From Patescibacteria group bacterium (GTDB lineage: Bacteria; Patescibacteriota; Minisyncoccia; Phycocordibacterales; UBA9973): a DNA stretch of 64,000 nt. Of the stretch, positions 1-14,058 are shown one piece after another. Positions within the stretch are counted from its first letter, which is position 1. Every line of letters starts with the position of its first letter. The stretch spans positions 13,477 to 77,476 of the forward strand of contig JBBTYD010000005.1 in assembly GCA_038061925.1 (NCBI GenBank), in the 5' to 3' direction. Under the pieces are notes generated by a model, which worked only from the letters and a program-made list of their open reading frames with translations, did no database searches and was not told the DNA's origin. Position numbers and translations under genes: made by a program.

Positions 1-320
1 AGGGATTATATTTAGGACAAGATTTTGGTAAGTTAGGTAAAGTGGTTAAAACTACGCCAGGAGAGCTAAAAAGCTTTACAAACATTGTTACAAAAGACCC
101 TTATCATGGCTTAAACCAAGCAATTTCCAGAGGGATTTCTCCCCAACTCATACAAGATACAGTAAAAAATCCTCTGATTAAATTACAACAAGACAGCAAC
201 TCCGTTTATCTTAATAAACAAGCTGGAGTTGTTCTTGATAAATTGGGCGGTTTAATTACTACGTATCATAGTAGTGAATTTAAGGTCCATATATCAAATG
301 TATTAAAAAGTATTAAATAA
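1..320 (+). CDS. 3'-terminal fragment of a protein that starts upstream of the window. Possibly the C-terminal toxin tip of a polymorphic toxin or TcC-like protein.
   Basis: The reading frame is open from nt 3 with no stop, so the ORF enters from upstream and ends at TAA 318-320. No recognisable catalytic motif. Its position directly before a small ORF and an Rhs-type shell gene suggests a toxin C-terminal domain. Confidence 0.35.
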   Translation, partial: GLYLGQDFGKLGKVVKTTPGELKSFTNIVTKDPYHGLNQAISRGISPQLIQDTVKNPLIKLQQDSNSVYLNKQAGVVLDKLGGLITTYHSSEFKVHISNVLKSIK

Positions 321-326
321 AAATTT

Positions 327-602
327 ATGAAAAAAAATGTAATAAATAATTCAATTAAAAAAATTGATAATTATATCCATGAAAGTGACCCATTAGGATT
401 AGGTGGAGCTTCCGGTGAATATTCGGATGTTGTATTTAACCTCTATAGAGTAGCAAAAGAAGGAATGGGTAAAATTACTAACAACCAAATTAAAAACGCT
501 TTTAAAAATATATTTGGCAATCTATCAGACACTTTAAATGTAGAAGACTTGAATCTTATCAAAAGTTTTATTGAAGAAACGATAATTTTAGAAAATGACT
601 GA
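327..602 (+). CDS. Small hypothetical protein (91 aa). Candidate immunity or accessory protein of the toxin locus.
   Basis: Starts 7 nt after the upstream stop and overlaps the start of the large RHS gene by 8 nt, implying translational coupling. No signal peptide. The immunity role is inferred from position only. Confidence 0.3.
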   Translation: MKKNVINNSIKKIDNYIHESDPLGLGGASGEYSDVVFNLYRVAKEGMGKITNNQIKNAFKNIFGNLSDTLNVEDLNLIKSFIEETIILEND

Positions 603-3600
603 AGAAAATAAATTTATGATAGAAAAAAAACAAAAAATAATTTCTTTAGTCACTCTACTGTTCTTGGTCTTTCAACCGCTCTCTTTTATTTTAGCTAATA
701 ACAAGACAACGCTACCTCCCACGCTTGCGCCGATAGACAACAGCTCCCCGGTGGATGACGCTCCATCCGTTCCTCTTTTAAAATCAGACCCCGCCGTGGC
801 CAGTTCTCTGCCACCAACATCGGAGGCGCCTTTAGATCTTTCTCCTGCGCCGGCAACCGACAAACTTACAGACAAGAAATCTTTAAGCAGTGTTCAGACT
901 AGCTCCGTCACTTCAGGAACGACACAGTCATACAGCCCCTCCGGCGCTCAAAAAACTTTGCAACCGAAAACAGATTTAAATACCGGGGCTTTGACCTTTG
1001 ATTATCCAATCTCTGCGCCTCCGGGCAGAAATGGTCTAACGCCAGATTTGAAACTTCAATATAACAGCAAGAACAATTTTAACAATAGTATGTTTGGTTA
1101 CGGCTGGACAGATAATATCCCGTATATTGAAAGAATAAACAAAGATGGAACAGACAAGCTTTATGCAGAAAATTATTTCTATTCTTCCACGGACGGAGAG
1201 TTGGTGTCTCAAGGCAACGGAAAATTCACACCCAAAACAGAGTCGGGAAGCTTTTCCAGTTATAATTTTGGAAGTGATCAGTGGCTCGTAACCGACAAAC
1301 AAGGAACGACCTATAAATTCGGTTACAATTCATCTGCCAGACAAGATGACCCAAATGACACTTCGCATATATATAAATGGATGCTGGAAGAAACAAGAGA
1401 CACAAATGATAACTACATCCAATACACCTATAACAAAGACGCGGGACAGATTTATCCGTCCGCTATAAATTATTCTGGCATCTTTGAAATTGAGTTTTTG
1501 AGAGAGTCCAGGGTGGATATAAATAAATCTTATGCCACGACGTTTCTGGTCGCGAGCAATTATCGGATTAGTGAAATACAAATAAAAATAAATAATGTCT
1601 GGGTGAAAAAATACAGTTTAGCTTATACGACGGGAGATAATGGAGTTCGTTCGTTACTCGAAAGTGTTACTGAATCGGGACAGGATGTGAATTCTGTCAT
1701 TACAACTTTACCCACAATTTTTTTTGATTATTATAAAAGCACTCCTGGTTGGAAACTTGATACTAAGACATACACTGCGCCTGTTTCATTTAACGGGTAT
1801 CAAAGTATGCTTGATGTTAACGGTGATGCTTTACCTGATATTGTCGAGTCATACAAATGGAATTGTAATCCAAACCAAGGAATAGTTAAAAACACATATA
1901 TAAATAATACACATAATGCTTGGAGTGAAAATAGTTCATTACAACCTCCAATTTTGTTTAGTCACTGTGATGCGCGTGGAAAGGAATATGGATATGGGTA
2001 TGGATGGAATCGGGGAGTGCGTACGGGAGATGTGAATGGAGATCTTTTGCCCGATATTATAAAGTCAGATGATCACACTCCCTATATTCTAAACGCAAAT
2101 GAATATGATACGTATATAAATACAAACGGTTCATCTTGGGTTCAAAATAAAGCTTGGCTTCCTACAATCACTTTCAATGGTGATGATGATAATGTTGATT
2201 GGAGTTCTTATTTTATTGATCTTAATGCGGATGGGTTGAATGACATTATACGGAACGGAGGAGGAGGAAACGAAAGAACTGGAACTCAAATAAATATAGG
2301 TACAAGTTTTAGTACGTCTACACAAAATTGGAATACCCCCGTTTCTTTAGCAACCTCACAAGATCTTAGTGTCCAATTTGTTGATATAAATAGTGATGGT
2401 CTCCCCGATATCTTATATCAATTTGATAGTTCTATTCCTAGTCGATCTGAAAAATCAATATATCTGAATAAAGGAGATGGAAAGTGGGTACTGGATAATT
2501 CATTTCTTTCAGATGAAATATACTTTGGTAATATTTATCAAGGCAATAGAATTGTCTTTTTTGATGTAAACAATGATGGACTTGTCGACGCAGTGCCAGG
2601 GAGCACCCTTGTGGATAGAAATTTTAACACATATTTAAATACTGGAACAGGCTGGGTGAAATCTCCGACCTGGAATGTACCAGGGAATCCTTGGAATCCT
2701 TGGATTAATTTTACAACATGGCCTTTTTTAAATATTGTTGATATTAATACTGACGGTTCCTTGGATTTTTTTATGACACAAAATTCAACTACCAATGCTT
2801 GGCTAAACAATACAAAAATTCCCACAGATACTCTCAAAAAAATAACTTCCTCAACAGAAGGTAACACTGATATTACTTATAAAAAATCAACACAATATTA
2901 TGATAATTCAAACAATCTTCTCAATCCAAATCTGCCTTTAAATCTAACAACTGTTTCCCAAATCACCATAAATGACGGCAACGGCAACAGCGAAACAACC
3001 TCTTATAGTTACGAAGGCGGTTCTTACTTTTTCAATACGGCTCTCGACCGCAAGTTCGCCGGTTTCAATAAAGTCAGCGAAACAGATTCGGTCGGCAACA
3101 CCACCACCACCTTTTATCATCAAGGCAACCCTTCGACCAGCTCAGGGCAAACACTTCTTGGAGAATATAACGATGACGAATGGAAAATAGGAAAACCGTA
3201 TCGAGTAGAAACGGCAGACAGTTCTGGTAATATCTATTCCAAAGCCATAAACAAGTGGGATGATTCTGATTTGGGCAATGGTAGTAAATTCGTGAAACTG
3301 GCGCAAACTATTGATTCCACTTACGATGGCGACTCAACGCACAAAGACAAAGCGGAAGGGTATGTATATGACAATTTAAACGGCAATCTTCTCCAAAAAA
3401 CAGAATATGGCGAAGTCGTGGGCAACGATAACGGCAGTTTCAGCGATATTGGCAACGACAGTTTTACCACAAATTACACTTATGCAATAGAAAGCGCGAA
3501 ATCTAAAGTAGCCAGTCAAAATACTGTAGACCAAAATTCAAACAAAGTTAAAGAGTCTCTCTATTATTATGACAACTTGCCATTAGGCCAGCTCTCGAAA

Positions 3601-5622
3601 GGCAACCAGACAAAAGAAGAAAAATGGAAAAATGGAAATACATATGTCAATATCCAAAAATCTTACAGAGGTTATGGCTTAGTGAAGGAAAGCGTTGACG
3701 CCAATGGCAATCCAACTAACTATGCTTACGACAATTTTAATTTATATCCCGCCACCATCACGAACGCCCTCAATCAAACCGTGAATCTGGCTTACGATTA
3801 TTCCACCGGTCAAGTCAAGCAAAAGATTGATCCGAATCATCGAGTCTTTCAATATGCTTATGACGGTTTAGGAAGACTTCTCTCGGAAAAACAACCAGAT
3901 CTCGTTGATCCTTCGTCTCTAGTCGTTAGAACCTCATACATATATACCGATACTCCCAACAATGTCGCAACGCAAAAGACTGATTATTTAGACGATTCAA
4001 CTAGCATTGACACATACACATACTTTGATGGTCTGGGCAGAAAAATACAAGAAAAAAAAGAAGCGGAAGATGGATATTCCGTCAAAGATTATGTGTATAA
4101 CAATCGTGGATTGCTGGACAAAGAATCATTGCCTTACAATAGTTCTGGCTCGGCCAGAACTGCCCCGACGACGACATCGGAGCTTTATACTAATTACACT
4201 TATGACCCAGCGCAAAGAGTAACTGCTTCTGTAAATAATCTAGGCACTATCACCAATACCTACAATGATTGGAAACTGACGATCACCAATGCCAATGGCA
4301 AAACAAAAGATCTATCCAAAGACGCTTATAATAATTTAATCCAAGTTGATGAACACCCTTCGATCAGCTCAGGACCGGCAACCACTTATTACTCCTACGA
4401 TTATCTCGGAGATTTGACAAAAATCACGGATGCTTTGGGCAACATCCGGAATTTTACTTACGATGGTTTGGGACGCCGATTGACAGCCCAGGATTTACAC
4501 GCGCCGGGCGACCTTACTTTTGGCGCTTATGTTTATACCTACGATAATAATGGAAATTTAATTAAAATTGTGGACCCCAATGGTTCGAGAAGCTCACCAC
4601 CTACGGCAATCAATTATACCTACGACGTCTTGAATCGGCAGTTAACTGAAGATTACACAAGAAACACCGGAGTGGAAGTAACTTACACCTACGACCGTGG
4701 CGCCGAGGGCCTAGGACGTCTCACAGGCATTGCCACCCGAGCGCTTGCTCAAACTAACACCTACAACGCAGTGGGCGAACTGAAAAGCGAATCAAAAATT
4801 ATTAACGGAGCGACTTATCGGACCAGTTATGATTATGACCGACTGGGCAATCAGATTACAATCACCAATCCAGATTCAGCCATCGTAAAATACAACTACA
4901 ATTCAGCCGGATTGCTGGAATCAGTTCAAAAGAAAGAAGCAAATGATACGGAATACACTGCGGTCGTTAGCAACTTCGATTATTCTCCAACTGAACAACC
5001 TGCCACCATTGTCTATCAGAATGGCGCAACCACCACCAACACTTACGATTCCACCAAACTTTACAGGTTGACTGCTAAAATCACGACCCTCCCCGGATCT
5101 CTCCATCTTCAAGATCTTACTTACACCTATGACGCAGTCGGCAACATTCTCCAAATAGTCGATGCCTCGGCAACGGACACTTCCAAAACAGCCCATTATA
5201 TTTATGATGATTTAGATCGCCTAATGGAAGCCGTGATAACCAATGTCGCGCCGGGTCAAAATGCCTATACCCAAACTTACACCTACAACGCAATTGGTAA
5301 TCTTTTGACCAAATCCGACTTTTCTGGAATTTATATTTACGGAGGTACGAATTATGCCAATCCGCACGCGGTCACATCTATTGGATCAACCCCGCTAACT
5401 TACGACCGCAATGGTAATGAACTAACTAAAGGTTCCGACTTAACCAATACCTGGGATTACAATAACAGGCTAAGTCAAGCCACGGCCGGTTCTAAGACCA
5501 ACGTTTACACTTATGATCCAAGCGGACAAAGAATCGTATCCGCCAATACTGCCTACACTATCACCGCCAGTCCAACGTCTCTACCCATTAAAAATCCAAT
5601 GCCTGCGCCACCAATAGAATGA
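595..5622 (+). CDS. TcB/Rhs-family shell protein (1675 aa). It has a signal/TM anchor, a Pro-rich linker, an SpvB-type N-terminal domain, an FG-GAP/VCBS beta-propeller, a mid region and many YD/RHS repeats. It ends without an RHS core or toxin tip.
   Basis: The N-terminal hydrophobic segment LVTLLFLVFQPLSFILA is followed by a P/S/T-rich linker. The SpvB/TcdB N-terminal pattern is LTFDYPISAPPGRNGLTPDLKLQYNS...FGYGWTDNIPYIERINKDG. There are at least 10 DxNxDGxxD FG-GAP-like repeats such as DVNGDALPDI, DINSDGLPDI and DVNNDGLVDA. More than 25 YD repeats follow, including YTYDxxGN, YAYDGLGRL, YTYDGLGRR and YDRNGN. The conserved RHS-core segment and C-terminal toxin are absent before TGA 5620-5622. 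Confidence 0.8.
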   Translation: MTEENKFMIEKKQKIISLVTLLFLVFQPLSFILANNKTTLPPTLAPIDNSSPVDDAPSVPLLKSDPAVASSLPPTSEAPLDLSPAPATDKLTDKKSLSSVQTSSVTSGTTQSYSPSGAQKTLQPKTDLNTGALTFDYPISAPPGRNGLTPDLKLQYNSKNNFNNSMFGYGWTDNIPYIERINKDGTDKLYAENYFYSSTDGELVSQGNGKFTPKTESGSFSSYNFGSDQWLVTDKQGTTYKFGYNSSARQDDPNDTSHIYKWMLEETRDTNDNYIQYTYNKDAGQIYPSAINYSGIFEIEFLRESRVDINKSYATTFLVASNYRISEIQIKINNVWVKKYSLAYTTGDNGVRSLLESVTESGQDVNSVITTLPTIFFDYYKSTPGWKLDTKTYTAPVSFNGYQSMLDVNGDALPDIVESYKWNCNPNQGIVKNTYINNTHNAWSENSSLQPPILFSHCDARGKEYGYGYGWNRGVRTGDVNGDLLPDIIKSDDHTPYILNANEYDTYINTNGSSWVQNKAWLPTITFNGDDDNVDWSSYFIDLNADGLNDIIRNGGGGNERTGTQINIGTSFSTSTQNWNTPVSLATSQDLSVQFVDINSDGLPDILYQFDSSIPSRSEKSIYLNKGDGKWVLDNSFLSDEIYFGNIYQGNRIVFFDVNNDGLVDAVPGSTLVDRNFNTYLNTGTGWVKSPTWNVPGNPWNPWINFTTWPFLNIVDINTDGSLDFFMTQNSTTNAWLNNTKIPTDTLKKITSSTEGNTDITYKKSTQYYDNSNNLLNPNLPLNLTTVSQITINDGNGNSETTSYSYEGGSYFFNTALDRKFAGFNKVSETDSVGNTTTTFYHQGNPSTSSGQTLLGEYNDDEWKIGKPYRVETADSSGNIYSKAINKWDDSDLGNGSKFVKLAQTIDSTYDGDSTHKDKAEGYVYDNLNGNLLQKTEYGEVVGNDNGSFSDIGNDSFTTNYTYAIESAKSKVASQNTVDQNSNKVKESLYYYDNLPLGQLSKGNQTKEEKWKNGNTYVNIQKSYRGYGLVKESVDANGNPTNYAYDNFNLYPATITNALNQTVNLAYDYSTGQVKQKIDPNHRVFQYAYDGLGRLLSEKQPDLVDPSSLVVRTSYIYTDTPNNVATQKTDYLDDSTSIDTYTYFDGLGRKIQEKKEAEDGYSVKDYVYNNRGLLDKESLPYNSSGSARTAPTTTSELYTNYTYDPAQRVTASVNNLGTITNTYNDWKLTITNANGKTKDLSKDAYNNLIQVDEHPSISSGPATTYYSYDYLGDLTKITDALGNIRNFTYDGLGRRLTAQDLHAPGDLTFGAYVYTYDNNGNLIKIVDPNGSRSSPPTAINYTYDVLNRQLTEDYTRNTGVEVTYTYDRGAEGLGRLTGIATRALAQTNTYNAVGELKSESKIINGATYRTSYDYDRLGNQITITNPDSAIVKYNYNSAGLLESVQKKEANDTEYTAVVSNFDYSPTEQPATIVYQNGATTTNTYDSTKLYRLTAKITTLPGSLHLQDLTYTYDAVGNILQIVDASATDTSKTAHYIYDDLDRLMEAVITNVAPGQNAYTQTYTYNAIGNLLTKSDFSGIYIYGGTNYANPHAVTSIGSTPLTYDRNGNELTKGSDLTNTWDYNNRLSQATAGSKTNVYTYDPSGQRIVSANTAYTITASPTSLPIKNPMPAPPIE

Positions 5623-5760
5623 TTAGAAAGAATATTTATTCAACCAAATAACCAGCATAAGCATTATCATAGGCCTTGACAATGATGCTGTAGGCAAAGG
5701 CGGAACTTATTAATGTTAAGATAAGAAAATACACTAATGTTTTATTAATTCTGTACATTG

Positions 5761-5833
5761 TGCGCCCGGTTGGGATCGAACCAACGACCTTATCCTTAAA
5801 AGGGATCTGCTCTACCAACTGAGCTACGGGCGC
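5761..5833 (-). tRNA. tRNA-Lys (anticodon UUU)
   Basis: The reverse complement folds as a cloverleaf: acceptor GCGCCCG/CGGGCGC, D-arm GCUC-AGUUGGUA-GAGC, anticodon loop CUUUUAA, T-arm GUUGG-UUCGAUC-CCAAC, discriminator A. CCA is not encoded. Confidence 0.85.
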
Positions 5834-12838: not shown

Positions 12839-14058
12839 AATTTTAAATTCTTTTCAATGCTTTCCAGCGCTTTAATTGTTTCTTGTTTATCTCCAAAGGC
12901 GCTTAAGCGAACATAGCCTTCTCCTTCCGACCCAAACCCAGAACCCGGAATTACGACAACCTGTGTTTCTTCCAAGAGTTTATCGAAAAATTCCCAAGAA
13001 CTTAAATTAGCGGGATTTTTTAACCAAATATATGGAGCCTGTTCTCCGCCAAAAACTTTAAAACCGAATTTAGAAAGACTTTTTTTTATTATGATCGCAT
13101 TGTTCATATAGTAAGCGATTAATTTCTGGCTTTCTTTTTGGCCAGCGGTCGAGAGAGCCGCTAAAGCGCCTTCTTCAGAGATATTAGATGCTCCATTAAA
13201 CATCGTGCTCTGGCGTCTATTCCAAAGACTGTTAACCTTACCCCTTTTTGTTTCTTCAACAATTAAATCCATCGGCACGACAGTCCAACCAAGACGGACG
13301 CCGGTAAACCCCGCCCATTTCGAAAAACTATTAATTTCGATAGCGCATTTTTTAGCCCCCTCTATCTCATAAATGCTCTTGGGCAAAGATTCATCAGAGA
13401 TATACTCAGCATAGGCAGCATCAAAGATAATAACCGCTTTGTTTTTTAAGGCATAATCAATAAAAAGTTTCAGCTGTTTTTTTGTGGCGACAGACCCCGT
13501 GGGATTATTTGGATTGCAAAGATAAATTATATCCACTTTTTGTTTGGGCGGAGTTGGCACAAAACCGTTTTTCTCATTGCCCTCCAGATAGACCAAACCT
13601 CCATATTTTCCATTCTTATATTCCCCCGTTCTTCCAGCCAGGACATTGCTGTCCAAATATACTGTATAAACAGGATCCGAAATTGCCACAATATTATTTA
13701 ATCCAAAAATTGATTGGATATTTGCCAAATCTGATTTCGCTCCATCGTTGATAAAAATTTCTGGCAGTTCTAAATCAATATTTCTTTTTTTGTAAAAATC
13801 AATCAAAGCAGACCGAAGTCTCTGGTCGCCCTGCGCGTCTTCATAACCTTTGTATGTTTCAACCTTGGCAAGTTTTTTCACTCCCTCTTTTAATCCTTTG
13901 ATAACAGTCGGGGTTAAGGGTCTGGTCGTATCCCCGATGCCGAGTCGCATAATTTCCACATCTGGATTCTTTTCTCTAAAATTATTCACGCGTTTGGCAA
14001 TCTCTTTAAACAAATACTCCCCCGACAGTTTATCGTAATTTTTATTAATGGTAGCCAT
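12835..14058 (-). CDS. dapL: LL-diaminopimelate aminotransferase (PLP-dependent, DapL type)
   Basis: The N-terminus MATINKNYDKLSGEYLFKEIAKRVNNFREKNPDVEIMRLGIGDTTRPL is typical of DapL. The aminotransferase class I fold and PLP-lysine region (SFSKWAGFTGVRLGW) are present. Confidence 0.8.
   Translation of the reverse strand: MATINKNYDKLSGEYLFKEIAKRVNNFREKNPDVEIMRLGIGDTTRPLTPTVIKGLKEGVKKLAKVETYKGYEDAQGDQRLRSALIDFYKKRNIDLELPEIFINDGAKSDLANIQSIFGLNNIVAISDPVYTVYLDSNVLAGRTGEYKNGKYGGLVYLEGNEKNGFVPTPPKQKVDIIYLCNPNNPTGSVATKKQLKLFIDYALKNKAVIIFDAAYAEYISDESLPKSIYEIEGAKKCAIEINSFSKWAGFTGVRLGWTVVPMDLIVEETKRGKVNSLWNRRQSTMFNGASNISEEGALAALSTAGQKESQKLIAYYMNNAIIIKKSLSKFGFKVFGGEQAPYIWLKNPANLSSWEFFDKLLEETQVVVIPGSGFGSEGEGYVRLSAFGDKQETIKALESIEKNLKL

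Follow-up and report, generated by a model that had tools for sequence, protein, structure and literature searches.

A probable Rhs polymorphic toxin locus with cage and plug-toxin on separate genes in a Patescibacteria genome

The solved cocoons made of YD/RHS repeats are either formed by a single chain, as in Rhs effectors, teneurins and TcB-TcC fusions, or by two chains that are joined in the cytoplasm, as in native TcB and TcC, of which TcC supplies roughly a third of the cocoon wall. Here we describe a locus located at the 5' end of a 64,000-nucleotide (nt) stretch of DNA (hereafter the window; positions 13,477 to 77,476 of the forward strand of contig JBBTYD010000005.1, GenBank assembly GCA_038061925.1), which very probably represents an Rhs polymorphic toxin/immunity system whose cage, or shell, and lid plus cargo are encoded by separate genes. 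The assembly is labelled by NCBI as a Patescibacteria metagenome-assembled genome (MAG), in agreement with the tiny, probably episymbiotic genome suggested by an earlier inspection of the window made from its letters only (hereafter the sequence-only reading).

Among described systems, the architecture in which SpvB, propeller, RHS repeats and toxin are fused has been defined as the 'TcdB/TcaC-type' polymorphic toxin (Zhang et al. 2012, PMC3482391) and a 2487-aa (amino acids) fused example has been noted in a Saccharibacterium (PMC6031116), so that the family itself is not new. In the locus described here, the signal peptide (recognised by sequence), SpvB, the propeller and the RHS repeats are all found in the shell while the toxin is carried by another polypeptide, which places it outside that definition. 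The closest precedent for such an arrangement is YenB, since three different TcC proteins can be packaged by this one TcB, including one whose gene is found at an orphan, separate locus (PMC11067744).

Domain content of the shell and plug-toxin genes

The locus is composed of tightly packed genes, and the positions of the open reading frames (ORFs) at this end of the window agree with those of the sequence-only reading (stop at 320, 327-602 and 595-5622). Window coordinates of the genes and of the parts of the shell are as follows.

1 to 320, plus strand: 3' end of the upstream gene (residues 280-384 of 384), corresponding to the toxin tip; the frame enters from upstream and its stop is at 318-320
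327 to 602, plus strand: 91-aa ORF from ATG 327 to TGA 602, candidate immunity gene
595 to 5622, plus strand: shell gene from ATG 595 to stop 5622, 1675 aa
595 to 699, plus strand: shell residues 1-35, putative signal peptide or N-terminal membrane anchor, MTEENKFMIEKKQK + IISLVTLLFLVFQPLSFILA + NNK
700 to 969, plus strand: shell residues 36-125, stalk rich in Pro, Ser and Thr (14, 17 and 11 residues, respectively, out of 90)
970 to 1794, plus strand: shell residues 126-400, SpvB/TcaC-type N-terminal domain (Pfam SpvB)
1795 to 2859, plus strand: shell residues 401-755, FG-GAP (integrin-like) beta-propeller (FG-GAP_3, six DxNxDxxxD motifs)
2860 to 5541, plus strand: shell residues 756-1649, YD/RHS-repeat cocoon wall (RHS_repeat x7, TIGR01643), ending where fused relatives enter the plug
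5542 to 5622, plus strand: shell residues 1650-1675 and stop; the junction strand is repeated here (ANTAYTIT) and a short Pro-rich tail then takes the place of the plug

The ATG at 327 sits 6 nt past the toxin stop, and the 91-aa ORF and the shell gene overlap by 8 nt (AATGACTGA). The upstream gene starts 834 nt before the window and was completed from public contigs that carry the same shell gene; it occupies L001:8572-9726 (window position = L001 position minus 9406) and encodes a protein of 384 aa, referred to below as the lid. The best promoter-like site of the locus (10/12 matches) is found 14 nt before its ATG. The lid is composed of the following parts.

Residues 1-45: putative signal peptide MKSLQIYRSTIKSLQSNIDRASFRLIAVLLAFLFILTPFTPVFA, followed by SK
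After the signal peptide: ca. 45 residues of beta-strand corresponding to shell-wall strands, TTYPSKYYNIDSNGKVTKHIFANG...
Residues 122-211: complete TIGR03696 core, ending in NNPITNSDPSGK before F (E 2.4e-17, 63.2 bits for a cutoff of 32.5, full model)
Between core and tip: ca. 65 hydrophobic, glycine-rich residues (linker)
Residues 280-384: 105-aa toxin tip, which enters the window (1 to 320, plus strand)

Signal peptides of both genes were judged by eye from the sequence. The sequence-only reading had proposed that the protein entering from upstream might be the TcC or toxin partner of the shell, and the upstream DNA indeed revealed an Rhs core and a C-terminal toxin rather than a housekeeping enzyme. 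This partner has only 384 aa and its own signal peptide, without any TcC-like share of the shell, and no Pfam RHS_repeat match was found in it. Lid residues 77-228 can be aligned to the plug region found at the C-terminus of Rhs proteins and teneurins of solved structure, and the two Asp of the autoprotease dyad, D171 and D208 (in QDP and DPSGK), are invariant in 18 signal-peptide core-toxin proteins. Such an aspartyl autoprotease dyad is known for RhsA (PMC8765631).

In the shell, profile searches detected RHS_repeat in seven stretches (E 5.2e-25), SpvB (E 2.3e-18) and FG-GAP_3 (E 5e-10) from Pfam as well as YD_repeat_2x (TIGR01643; E 1.3e-15) from NCBIfam. The SpvB, FG-GAP and YD/RHS architecture put forward from the letters was thus recovered, with lower motif counts since a strict count gives six DxNxDxxxD (at residues 407, 479, 542, 597, 657 and 716, instead of at least 10) and 17 YxY[DN] (instead of more than 25). 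The absence of an Rhs core and of a C-terminal toxin from the shell was also borne out, neither a TIGR03696 match nor a toxin being found in the 1675-aa protein with the Pfam and NCBIfam profiles. Inspection of the N-terminus likewise supports the predicted signal or membrane anchor and Pro-rich stalk, with a basic n-region, a 20-residue hydrophobic stretch and then a 90-aa stalk containing 42 Pro/Ser/Thr. Residues 1-100, stalk included, share 15-24% identity with relatives, while residues 101-300 share 70-73% with the homologue P0002 (see below); sequence matches of the SpvB region in the Protein Data Bank (PDB) correspond to the N-terminal regions of SpvB, TcdB1 and YenB. Divergence within the shell is highest in the propeller, with 25-39% identity to P0002 (residues 401-700) versus 56-76% along the wall, and because identity is low there when compared to the conserved cage the propeller probably represents a fast-evolving face for target recognition or binding.

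The fold was approached with an AlphaFold2 (AF2) model of shell residues 476-1675 built with 58 homologues, for which the mean predicted local distance difference test (pLDDT) is 84.4 and the predicted template modelling score (pTM) 0.73. The YD region is modelled almost wholly as beta-strand, with 10-residue blocks mostly at pLDDT 84-96, the propeller as all-beta with pLDDT of about 50-85, and the last 13 residues as disordered (pLDDT <50). In Foldseek comparisons, with template modelling (TM) scores normalised by query, the best match is the TcdB2-TccC3 fusion (TM 0.74-0.76, E 1e-46), lower scores being obtained with Rhs cocoons of type VI secretion systems (T6SS; TM 0.23-0.47, several with E <=1e-30), TcB alone (0.36-0.45), TcC alone (0.29-0.30) and teneurins (about 0.2-0.3). 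A beta-cocoon, as anticipated by the sequence-only reading, is therefore predicted, its best match being the whole TcdB2-TccC3 cocoon. Since the TM of 0.75 with the fusion is far above that with TcB, the shell gene would correspond to the TcB part together with the repeat part of TcC. The proposal of a TcB-like half-shell is then refuted (0.75 versus 0.39-0.45 for TcB), only the plug being encoded elsewhere, and as the plug is missing the C-terminal end of the cage is expected to be open.

The suggestion that a GC-rich 3' half of the shell gene reflects horizontal acquisition was not supported. The whole gene has a GC of 0.404 and a GC at third codon positions (GC3) of 0.373, and its 3' half 0.427 and 0.418, respectively, to be compared with 0.374 +/- 0.034 and 0.336 +/- 0.048 (mean +/- standard deviation, SD) in the 37 other ORFs of the window. 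The whole gene therefore falls within about 1 SD of window genes while the 3' half lies 1.6-1.7 SD higher, a small real rise yet inside the observed range. The excess occurs mostly at codon position 2 (GC2 0.41 versus 0.34 for the other ORFs) and is explained by amino-acid content, so that horizontal transfer of the shell was discarded on this basis. The compositional outliers of the locus are the AT-rich tip and candidate immunity genes, not the shell.

The tip itself has no Pfam match at E up to 10 and none in NCBIfam or among PDB sequences. Its AF2 model (pLDDT 95.4, pTM 0.88) displays two helices on a four-stranded antiparallel sheet, with an added C-terminal helix, and is confidently assigned to a RelE/colicin-E5-like (BECR) RNase fold; an RNase activity is thereby predicted. 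DUF4258 (PF14076) gave weak matches in 15 of 40 tip relatives (best E 1.5e-4), and H35 and R43 of the tip (protein residues 314 and 322) are nearly invariant among these 40. The tip family comprises 292 cluster representatives, and among the 150 matches listed, in proteins of 79-2957 aa, all but one end at or within ca. 10 residues of the C-terminus. For the 91-aa ORF, no family was found in Pfam or NCBIfam, no match among PDB sequences, and no signal peptide. A 90-aa ORF that follows the fused Rhs protein P0041, which has a tip of the same family, shares with it an N-terminal SDP(L/I)GL motif (pairwise E 7e-4). Position and this similarity suggest, if weakly, that 327-602 is likely the immunity gene for the tip, the first of the two roles, immunity or chaperone, initially considered. 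The pairing of a variable C-terminal toxin with a following candidate immunity ORF is thus found in this system on the lid gene, not on the shell.

Complementarity with fused relatives and age of the split

More than 300 shell homologues were detected and those with a source name mostly have Patescibacteria labels. Of the 120 homologues listed, about 104 consist of a single fused chain of 1830-2860 aa in which core and tip are present (as defined by the presence of YxPFG and/or PxxxxDPxG); most others have unrelated toxin-like C-termini, which would agree with a fused architecture as well. Identity with the fused family amounts to 42-55% across nearly the whole shell. The junction, which in the fused protein P0003 reads ...YDPGGQRIKVVNENITTYYPNKYYNIDSNGKVTKEIYANG..., is broken in the shell after ...YDPSGQRI; the shell ends with ...YDPSGQRIVSANTAYTIT followed by a 17-residue Pro-rich tail, and the lid resumes after its signal peptide at VSATTVITTYPSKYYNIDSNGKVTKHIFANG, so that a copy of the junction strand is present on both halves. 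Lid-type proteins also keep wall strands with residues that are conserved in the fused proteins (YP.K.YN...TKHI.A). As judged from these alignments, shell and lid genes sum to one fused family member of ca. 2000 aa with a break just before the plug.

A second lineage displays the same situation. P0002 (1710 aa, 55% identical to the shell) is broken off at the same residue as the shell and ends in a homologous tail (AS..S..PI..PM..P.I). In its locus, L007, the gene found 27 nt after the shell gene encodes a protein of 387 aa (P0167) that combines a signal peptide, a core and a toxin. A shell-only gene thus adjoins a plug-toxin gene in both lineages, in different orders: shell-lid in L007 and lid-immunity-shell here. 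Both 5-kb shell ORFs are intact, with the identity along the wall given above. Because a 55%-identical relative has the same break and a homologous tail, sequence comparison indicates that the split is old and maintained.

An assembly artefact does not account for the break, since at least six separately assembled contigs carry the identical protein and gene order. In total, the identical 1675-aa protein occurs on nine public contigs, mostly from the Hainich groundwater well H43 and including MAG GCA_964367135.1, and the gene order is the same in at least six contigs from separate assemblies of several samples. A frameshift or assembly error was rejected on these grounds and because no continuation was found downstream in any frame before the tRNA gene described below.

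Further on in L007, a membrane ORF of 152 aa precedes an orphan toxin fragment of the classic type, after which a second small membrane ORF is found; the orphan cassette (L007:14696-15789) comprises a 216-aa ORF that begins inside the core end (NSYSYARNNPIAYVDPDGE) and a 145-aa multi-pass membrane ORF. Signal-peptide segments look exchanged between the genes of the two loci, window positions 633-694 resembling the lid gene at L007:12978-13039 (76.6% over 64 nt) and the lid signal-peptide DNA at L001:8653-8688 that of the shell at L007:7882-7920 (82% over 39 nt). A single recombination deriving the permuted order from L007 was considered and discarded, as no simple path fits this apparent exchange. 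A 2517-aa protein truncated after TKHIF (P0089 in L101) was also rejected as a second type of split, because no ORF continues it and it abuts unrelated GC-rich sequence.

The genes that flank the toxin/shell locus are housekeeping genes. The shell locus is bounded by a tRNA-Lys(ttt) gene (5760-5833, minus strand, 137 nt past the shell stop) and by a SpoU methylase gene, and the gap between shell and tRNA is occupied by an uncalled 40-aa hydrophobic ORF (MYRINKTLVYFLILTLISSAFAYS..., 5636-5757, minus strand); in L007 the locus occurs at another genomic site. An IS200/IS605-type Y1 transposase ORF of 225 aa (L001:3097-3774) is located 4.8 kb upstream of the lid gene, beyond the window. Five clustered tRNA genes are located towards the 3' end of the window (61531-62888), those for His, Gly-tcc, Pro and Arg being on the minus strand and that for Gly-gcc on the plus strand. 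No extra copies of the 384-aa protein, the shell or the 91-aa ORF were detected by tblastn within the 64 kb.

Small core-toxin proteins and readings of the locus

The MAG GCA_964367135.1 contains a second plug-toxin gene, encoding P0124 (417 aa; L008:10001-11580 = L011:1001-2580; contig CAYIWK010000002.1), which is surrounded by housekeeping genes, none of the genes within 10 kb being a shell gene. P0124 and the lid are 63% identical from Met1 to DP(S/K)G(K/E)FA and unrelated beyond, and the ORFs that follow (104 aa and 91 aa, respectively) are unrelated as well, a pattern typical of polymorphic toxins. At the DNA level, identity is 79.5% from 43 nt before the ATG, a region that includes the promoter-like site, to near residue 194; it stops inside the core, ca. 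17 residues before the cleavage motif, while protein similarity extends to the motif. The conserved part has a GC3 of ca. 0.41, compared to 0.20-0.28 for the tips and the ORFs that follow. The P0124 tip resembles that of P0167, the lid found beside the shell in L007.

This layout of signal peptide, core and toxin is displayed by about 20 of the 120 lid homologues listed, and in representative genomes small core-toxin proteins are single or paired, with at least three in one MAG; in one such protein the tip is a Colicin_E5 domain, and an Imm40 gene comes next. Other small Rhs proteins form a separate class, composed of a signal peptide, a domain of ca. 200 aa with a conserved IPIYFF... motif, the junction strands, a core and a tip (L084:9799-11601, L108:795-2534, L100:2422-3849 and L115:1514-3079; P0205 and P0210), while in L099:3388-4482 and L128:15264-16373 the signal peptide is joined straight to the core start, without wall strands. 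Two sequences have archaeal labels: P0038 is a fused homologue assigned to 'Candidatus Methanoperedens nitratireducens', while L019, from a MAG labelled 'uncultured archaeon', contains a fragment with core and toxin. Either transfer or a binning error could account for these labels. At L010:9915-11323 (assembly GCA_040960315.1), an FtsH-like gene (AAA, Peptidase_M41) contains an intein bearing a LAGLIDADG endonuclease domain.

These data can be accommodated in the following scheme. The lid, immunity and cage genes would probably be transcribed from one promoter, and the cage and lid proteins would be exported unfolded by a Sec-type route. The cage, with its anchor or signal peptide, stalk, SpvB, propeller and whole YD wall, would fold on the cell surface, where the lid-toxin protein would dock at the open end via strand pairing with the toxin threaded inside; the lid core, which combines plug and aspartyl autoprotease, would then cleave after DPSGK, leaving the cage closed. 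On contact with another cell the toxin would be released, would enter helped by the hydrophobic linker and would cut RNA. The second plug-toxin gene could share the cage, one 5-kb gene serving several cartridges of 1.2 kb. In Sec-exported fused members the cage would emerge and fold before plug and toxin, so that a break before the plug should be the least disruptive. We regard as evenly balanced the proposal that cage and lid are exported separately and assemble at the surface, with a cage that can take either cartridge. The fuller reading, a naturally split Rhs weapon with separate export, assembly outside the cytoplasm and one cage gene loaded with interchangeable, scattered cartridges, is advanced only tentatively, and the same reserve applies to its component that the episymbiotic Patescibacterium would have independently evolved a TcB/TcC-like modular design with a different break point.

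Several observations weigh against this split-weapon reading. Known TcB-TcC cocoons assemble in the cytoplasm and not after export. The split is rare: shell-only proteins represent 2 of the 120 shell homologues listed, and no split like this one was seen at ca. 72 judgeable loci out of 79 metagenome loci related to the C-terminal end of the shell (70-71 fused, 7 running off the contig end and 1 truncated elsewhere). A profile of this end and its tail, searched against 5.8 billion proteins to reveal more genes of the shell-only type, was uninformative, returning only fragments of 95-262 aa and not even the two query proteins. The P0124 contig is tied to this genome only by its bin and by a coverage that is equal for both contigs in each of two samples (8x and 6x), and the immunity assignment draws on position and one weak similarity. 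Most small core-toxin proteins lie far from any shell gene, with none within 10 kb (L008, L010, L014, L016, L017 and L020), and some are encoded beside fused Rhs genes that are already plugged (L060, L099, L110 and L128). Finally, the P1 residue of the lid cleavage motif is Lys, where Leu, Trp or Phe is usual (PMC8765631).

The small proteins found beside plugged fused cages may work alone, and this leads to the main alternative reading, which we consider rather unlikely, in which the two genes are independent: the small proteins would be self-sufficient toxins, with the core as a self-cleaving pro-domain and the linker for entry, and the shell would be an empty teneurin-like adhesin or a leftover. 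The frequency of such proteins in Patescibacteria (the ca. 20 of 120 homologues mentioned above, at least three of them in one MAG), their usual distance of more than 10 kb from any shell gene, their proximity to fused genes unable to accept them and the variants with a signal peptide directly on the core (L099 and L128) are all consistent with it, and teneurins provide a precedent for empty, uncleaved YD shells (PMC8765631). Set against this are the adjacency of shell-only and small core-toxin genes in both shell-only lineages, despite another order and another site, the exactly complementary break with a conserved tail on the shell, and the ca. 45 wall residues, conserved in fused proteins, that the small proteins of this lineage retain. 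An Rhs plug is not known to act in the absence of a shell. Independence would leave an ordinary polymorphic toxin locus and an unusual leftover gene.

A further possibility, quite improbable in our view, is that a fused Rhs gene was broken by rearrangement or deletion and that non-functional remnants persist, immunity being kept against kin toxins. Such decay would fit the rarity of the split form, the gene order permuted relative to L007, the apparent swap of signal-peptide segments, the proximity of tRNA-Lys (137 nt from the shell end), a common site of rearrangement, and the IS200/IS605 transposase ORF 4.8 kb upstream of the lid gene. It is difficult to reconcile with the same break and homologous tail in a 55%-identical relative, with two intact 5-kb ORFs and a conserved wall, with the completeness of the signal peptide and core of the lid gene, in which the two catalytic Asp positions are present, or with a paralogue (P0124) whose DNA is 79.5% identical over the promoter region, the signal peptide and the core; unused 5-kb genes would also be unlikely to last in a reduced genome. 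By far the least probable is the reading closest to the original proposal of a Tc-toxin-like locus, in which the BC part of a true Tc (ABC) toxin would dock via its propeller on a TcA encoded elsewhere. The SpvB, propeller and RHS architecture and the best structural match, TcdB2-TccC3 from Tc holotoxins, point in that direction, whereas no TcA-sized gene was found in the window (64 kb) or in the 9.4 kb that precede it, to which the search was limited, the largest other ORF being an 846-aa polymerase I. Sec-type N-termini and a membrane-proximal stalk, a split point that differs from the TcB/TcC boundary and a tightly linked candidate immunity gene, which would tentatively indicate bacterial, kin-related targets, also argue against it, and the propeller is the most variable part of this shell, the opposite of a conserved TcA-docking face. 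The locus is thus better described as a polymorphic toxin locus.

Comparison with described systems

When compared to known toxins, the features that appear new from sequence are the split before the plug, the signal peptide on each half, the permuted order and the second cartridge elsewhere. A split of this kind was not found described in the literature searched, a weak indication of novelty given that most subscription journals were outside its scope. For both Rhs and Tc toxins the mode of cargo loading is still an open question, and a separate secreted lid with its cargo would make loading directly testable. Were the split-weapon reading true, an Rhs cocoon could be loaded and sealed in trans after folding, and the lid would represent a small, swappable cartridge for engineered protein delivery. 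The arrangement might also be a way for a reduced genome to save on a 5-kb gene, and Patescibacteria, whose interactions with hosts and competitors are poorly understood, gain a concrete candidate for a contact weapon.

The fused toxins of Patescibacteria are of the same family, with the same style of N-terminal signal and the same core, in some cases the same tip family (P0041), and are followed by an immunity-sized ORF; they differ in being one polypeptide of ca. 1900-2800 aa, whereas here the chain is broken before the plug and the lid half, with its own signal peptide, is encoded upstream. WapA of Bacillus subtilis, like other Sec-dependent Rhs toxins of Gram-positive bacteria, is reportedly involved in contact-dependent competition without a type VI system. 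Reported features in common with the present system are the signal peptide, the RHS repeats and core, a nuclease-type toxin at the C-terminus and an immunity gene located downstream; WapA differs in being a single polypeptide with cell-wall-binding repeats and without SpvB, propeller or separate plug. Orphan rhs/cdi cassettes resemble the small genes in their conserved core DNA, divergent tip and immunity gene and in the compositional break at the junction, but they are recombination donors without start codon or export signal, in contrast to the promoter-like site, start codon and full signal peptide observed here. The T6SS Rhs effectors (RhsA, Tse5, Tse15 and RhsP) also have a YD cocoon closed by a C-terminal plug, with autocleavage at PxxxxDPxG (PMC8765631). 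They are one chain with PAAR/VgrG-linked N-termini, fragmented only by proteolysis after folding, and their fold match with the shell is weaker (TM 0.37-0.47).

The TcB-TcC cocoons, such as TcdB2-TccC3 of Photorhabdus or YenB with YenC1, YenC2 or YenC3 of Yersinia entomophaga, share with this locus a cocoon made by two genes, SpvB, the propeller, the RHS wall, an aspartyl-protease plug and a toxin located C-terminal to the plug. They differ in the share of the second gene, which here gives only ca. 45 wall residues and the plug. No TcA accompanies the present genes (in the window and 9.4 kb upstream), and the Sec-type N-termini on both would require assembly outside the cytoplasm. The locus described here differs finally by its candidate immunity gene and by a predicted RNase-like cargo of bacterial type.

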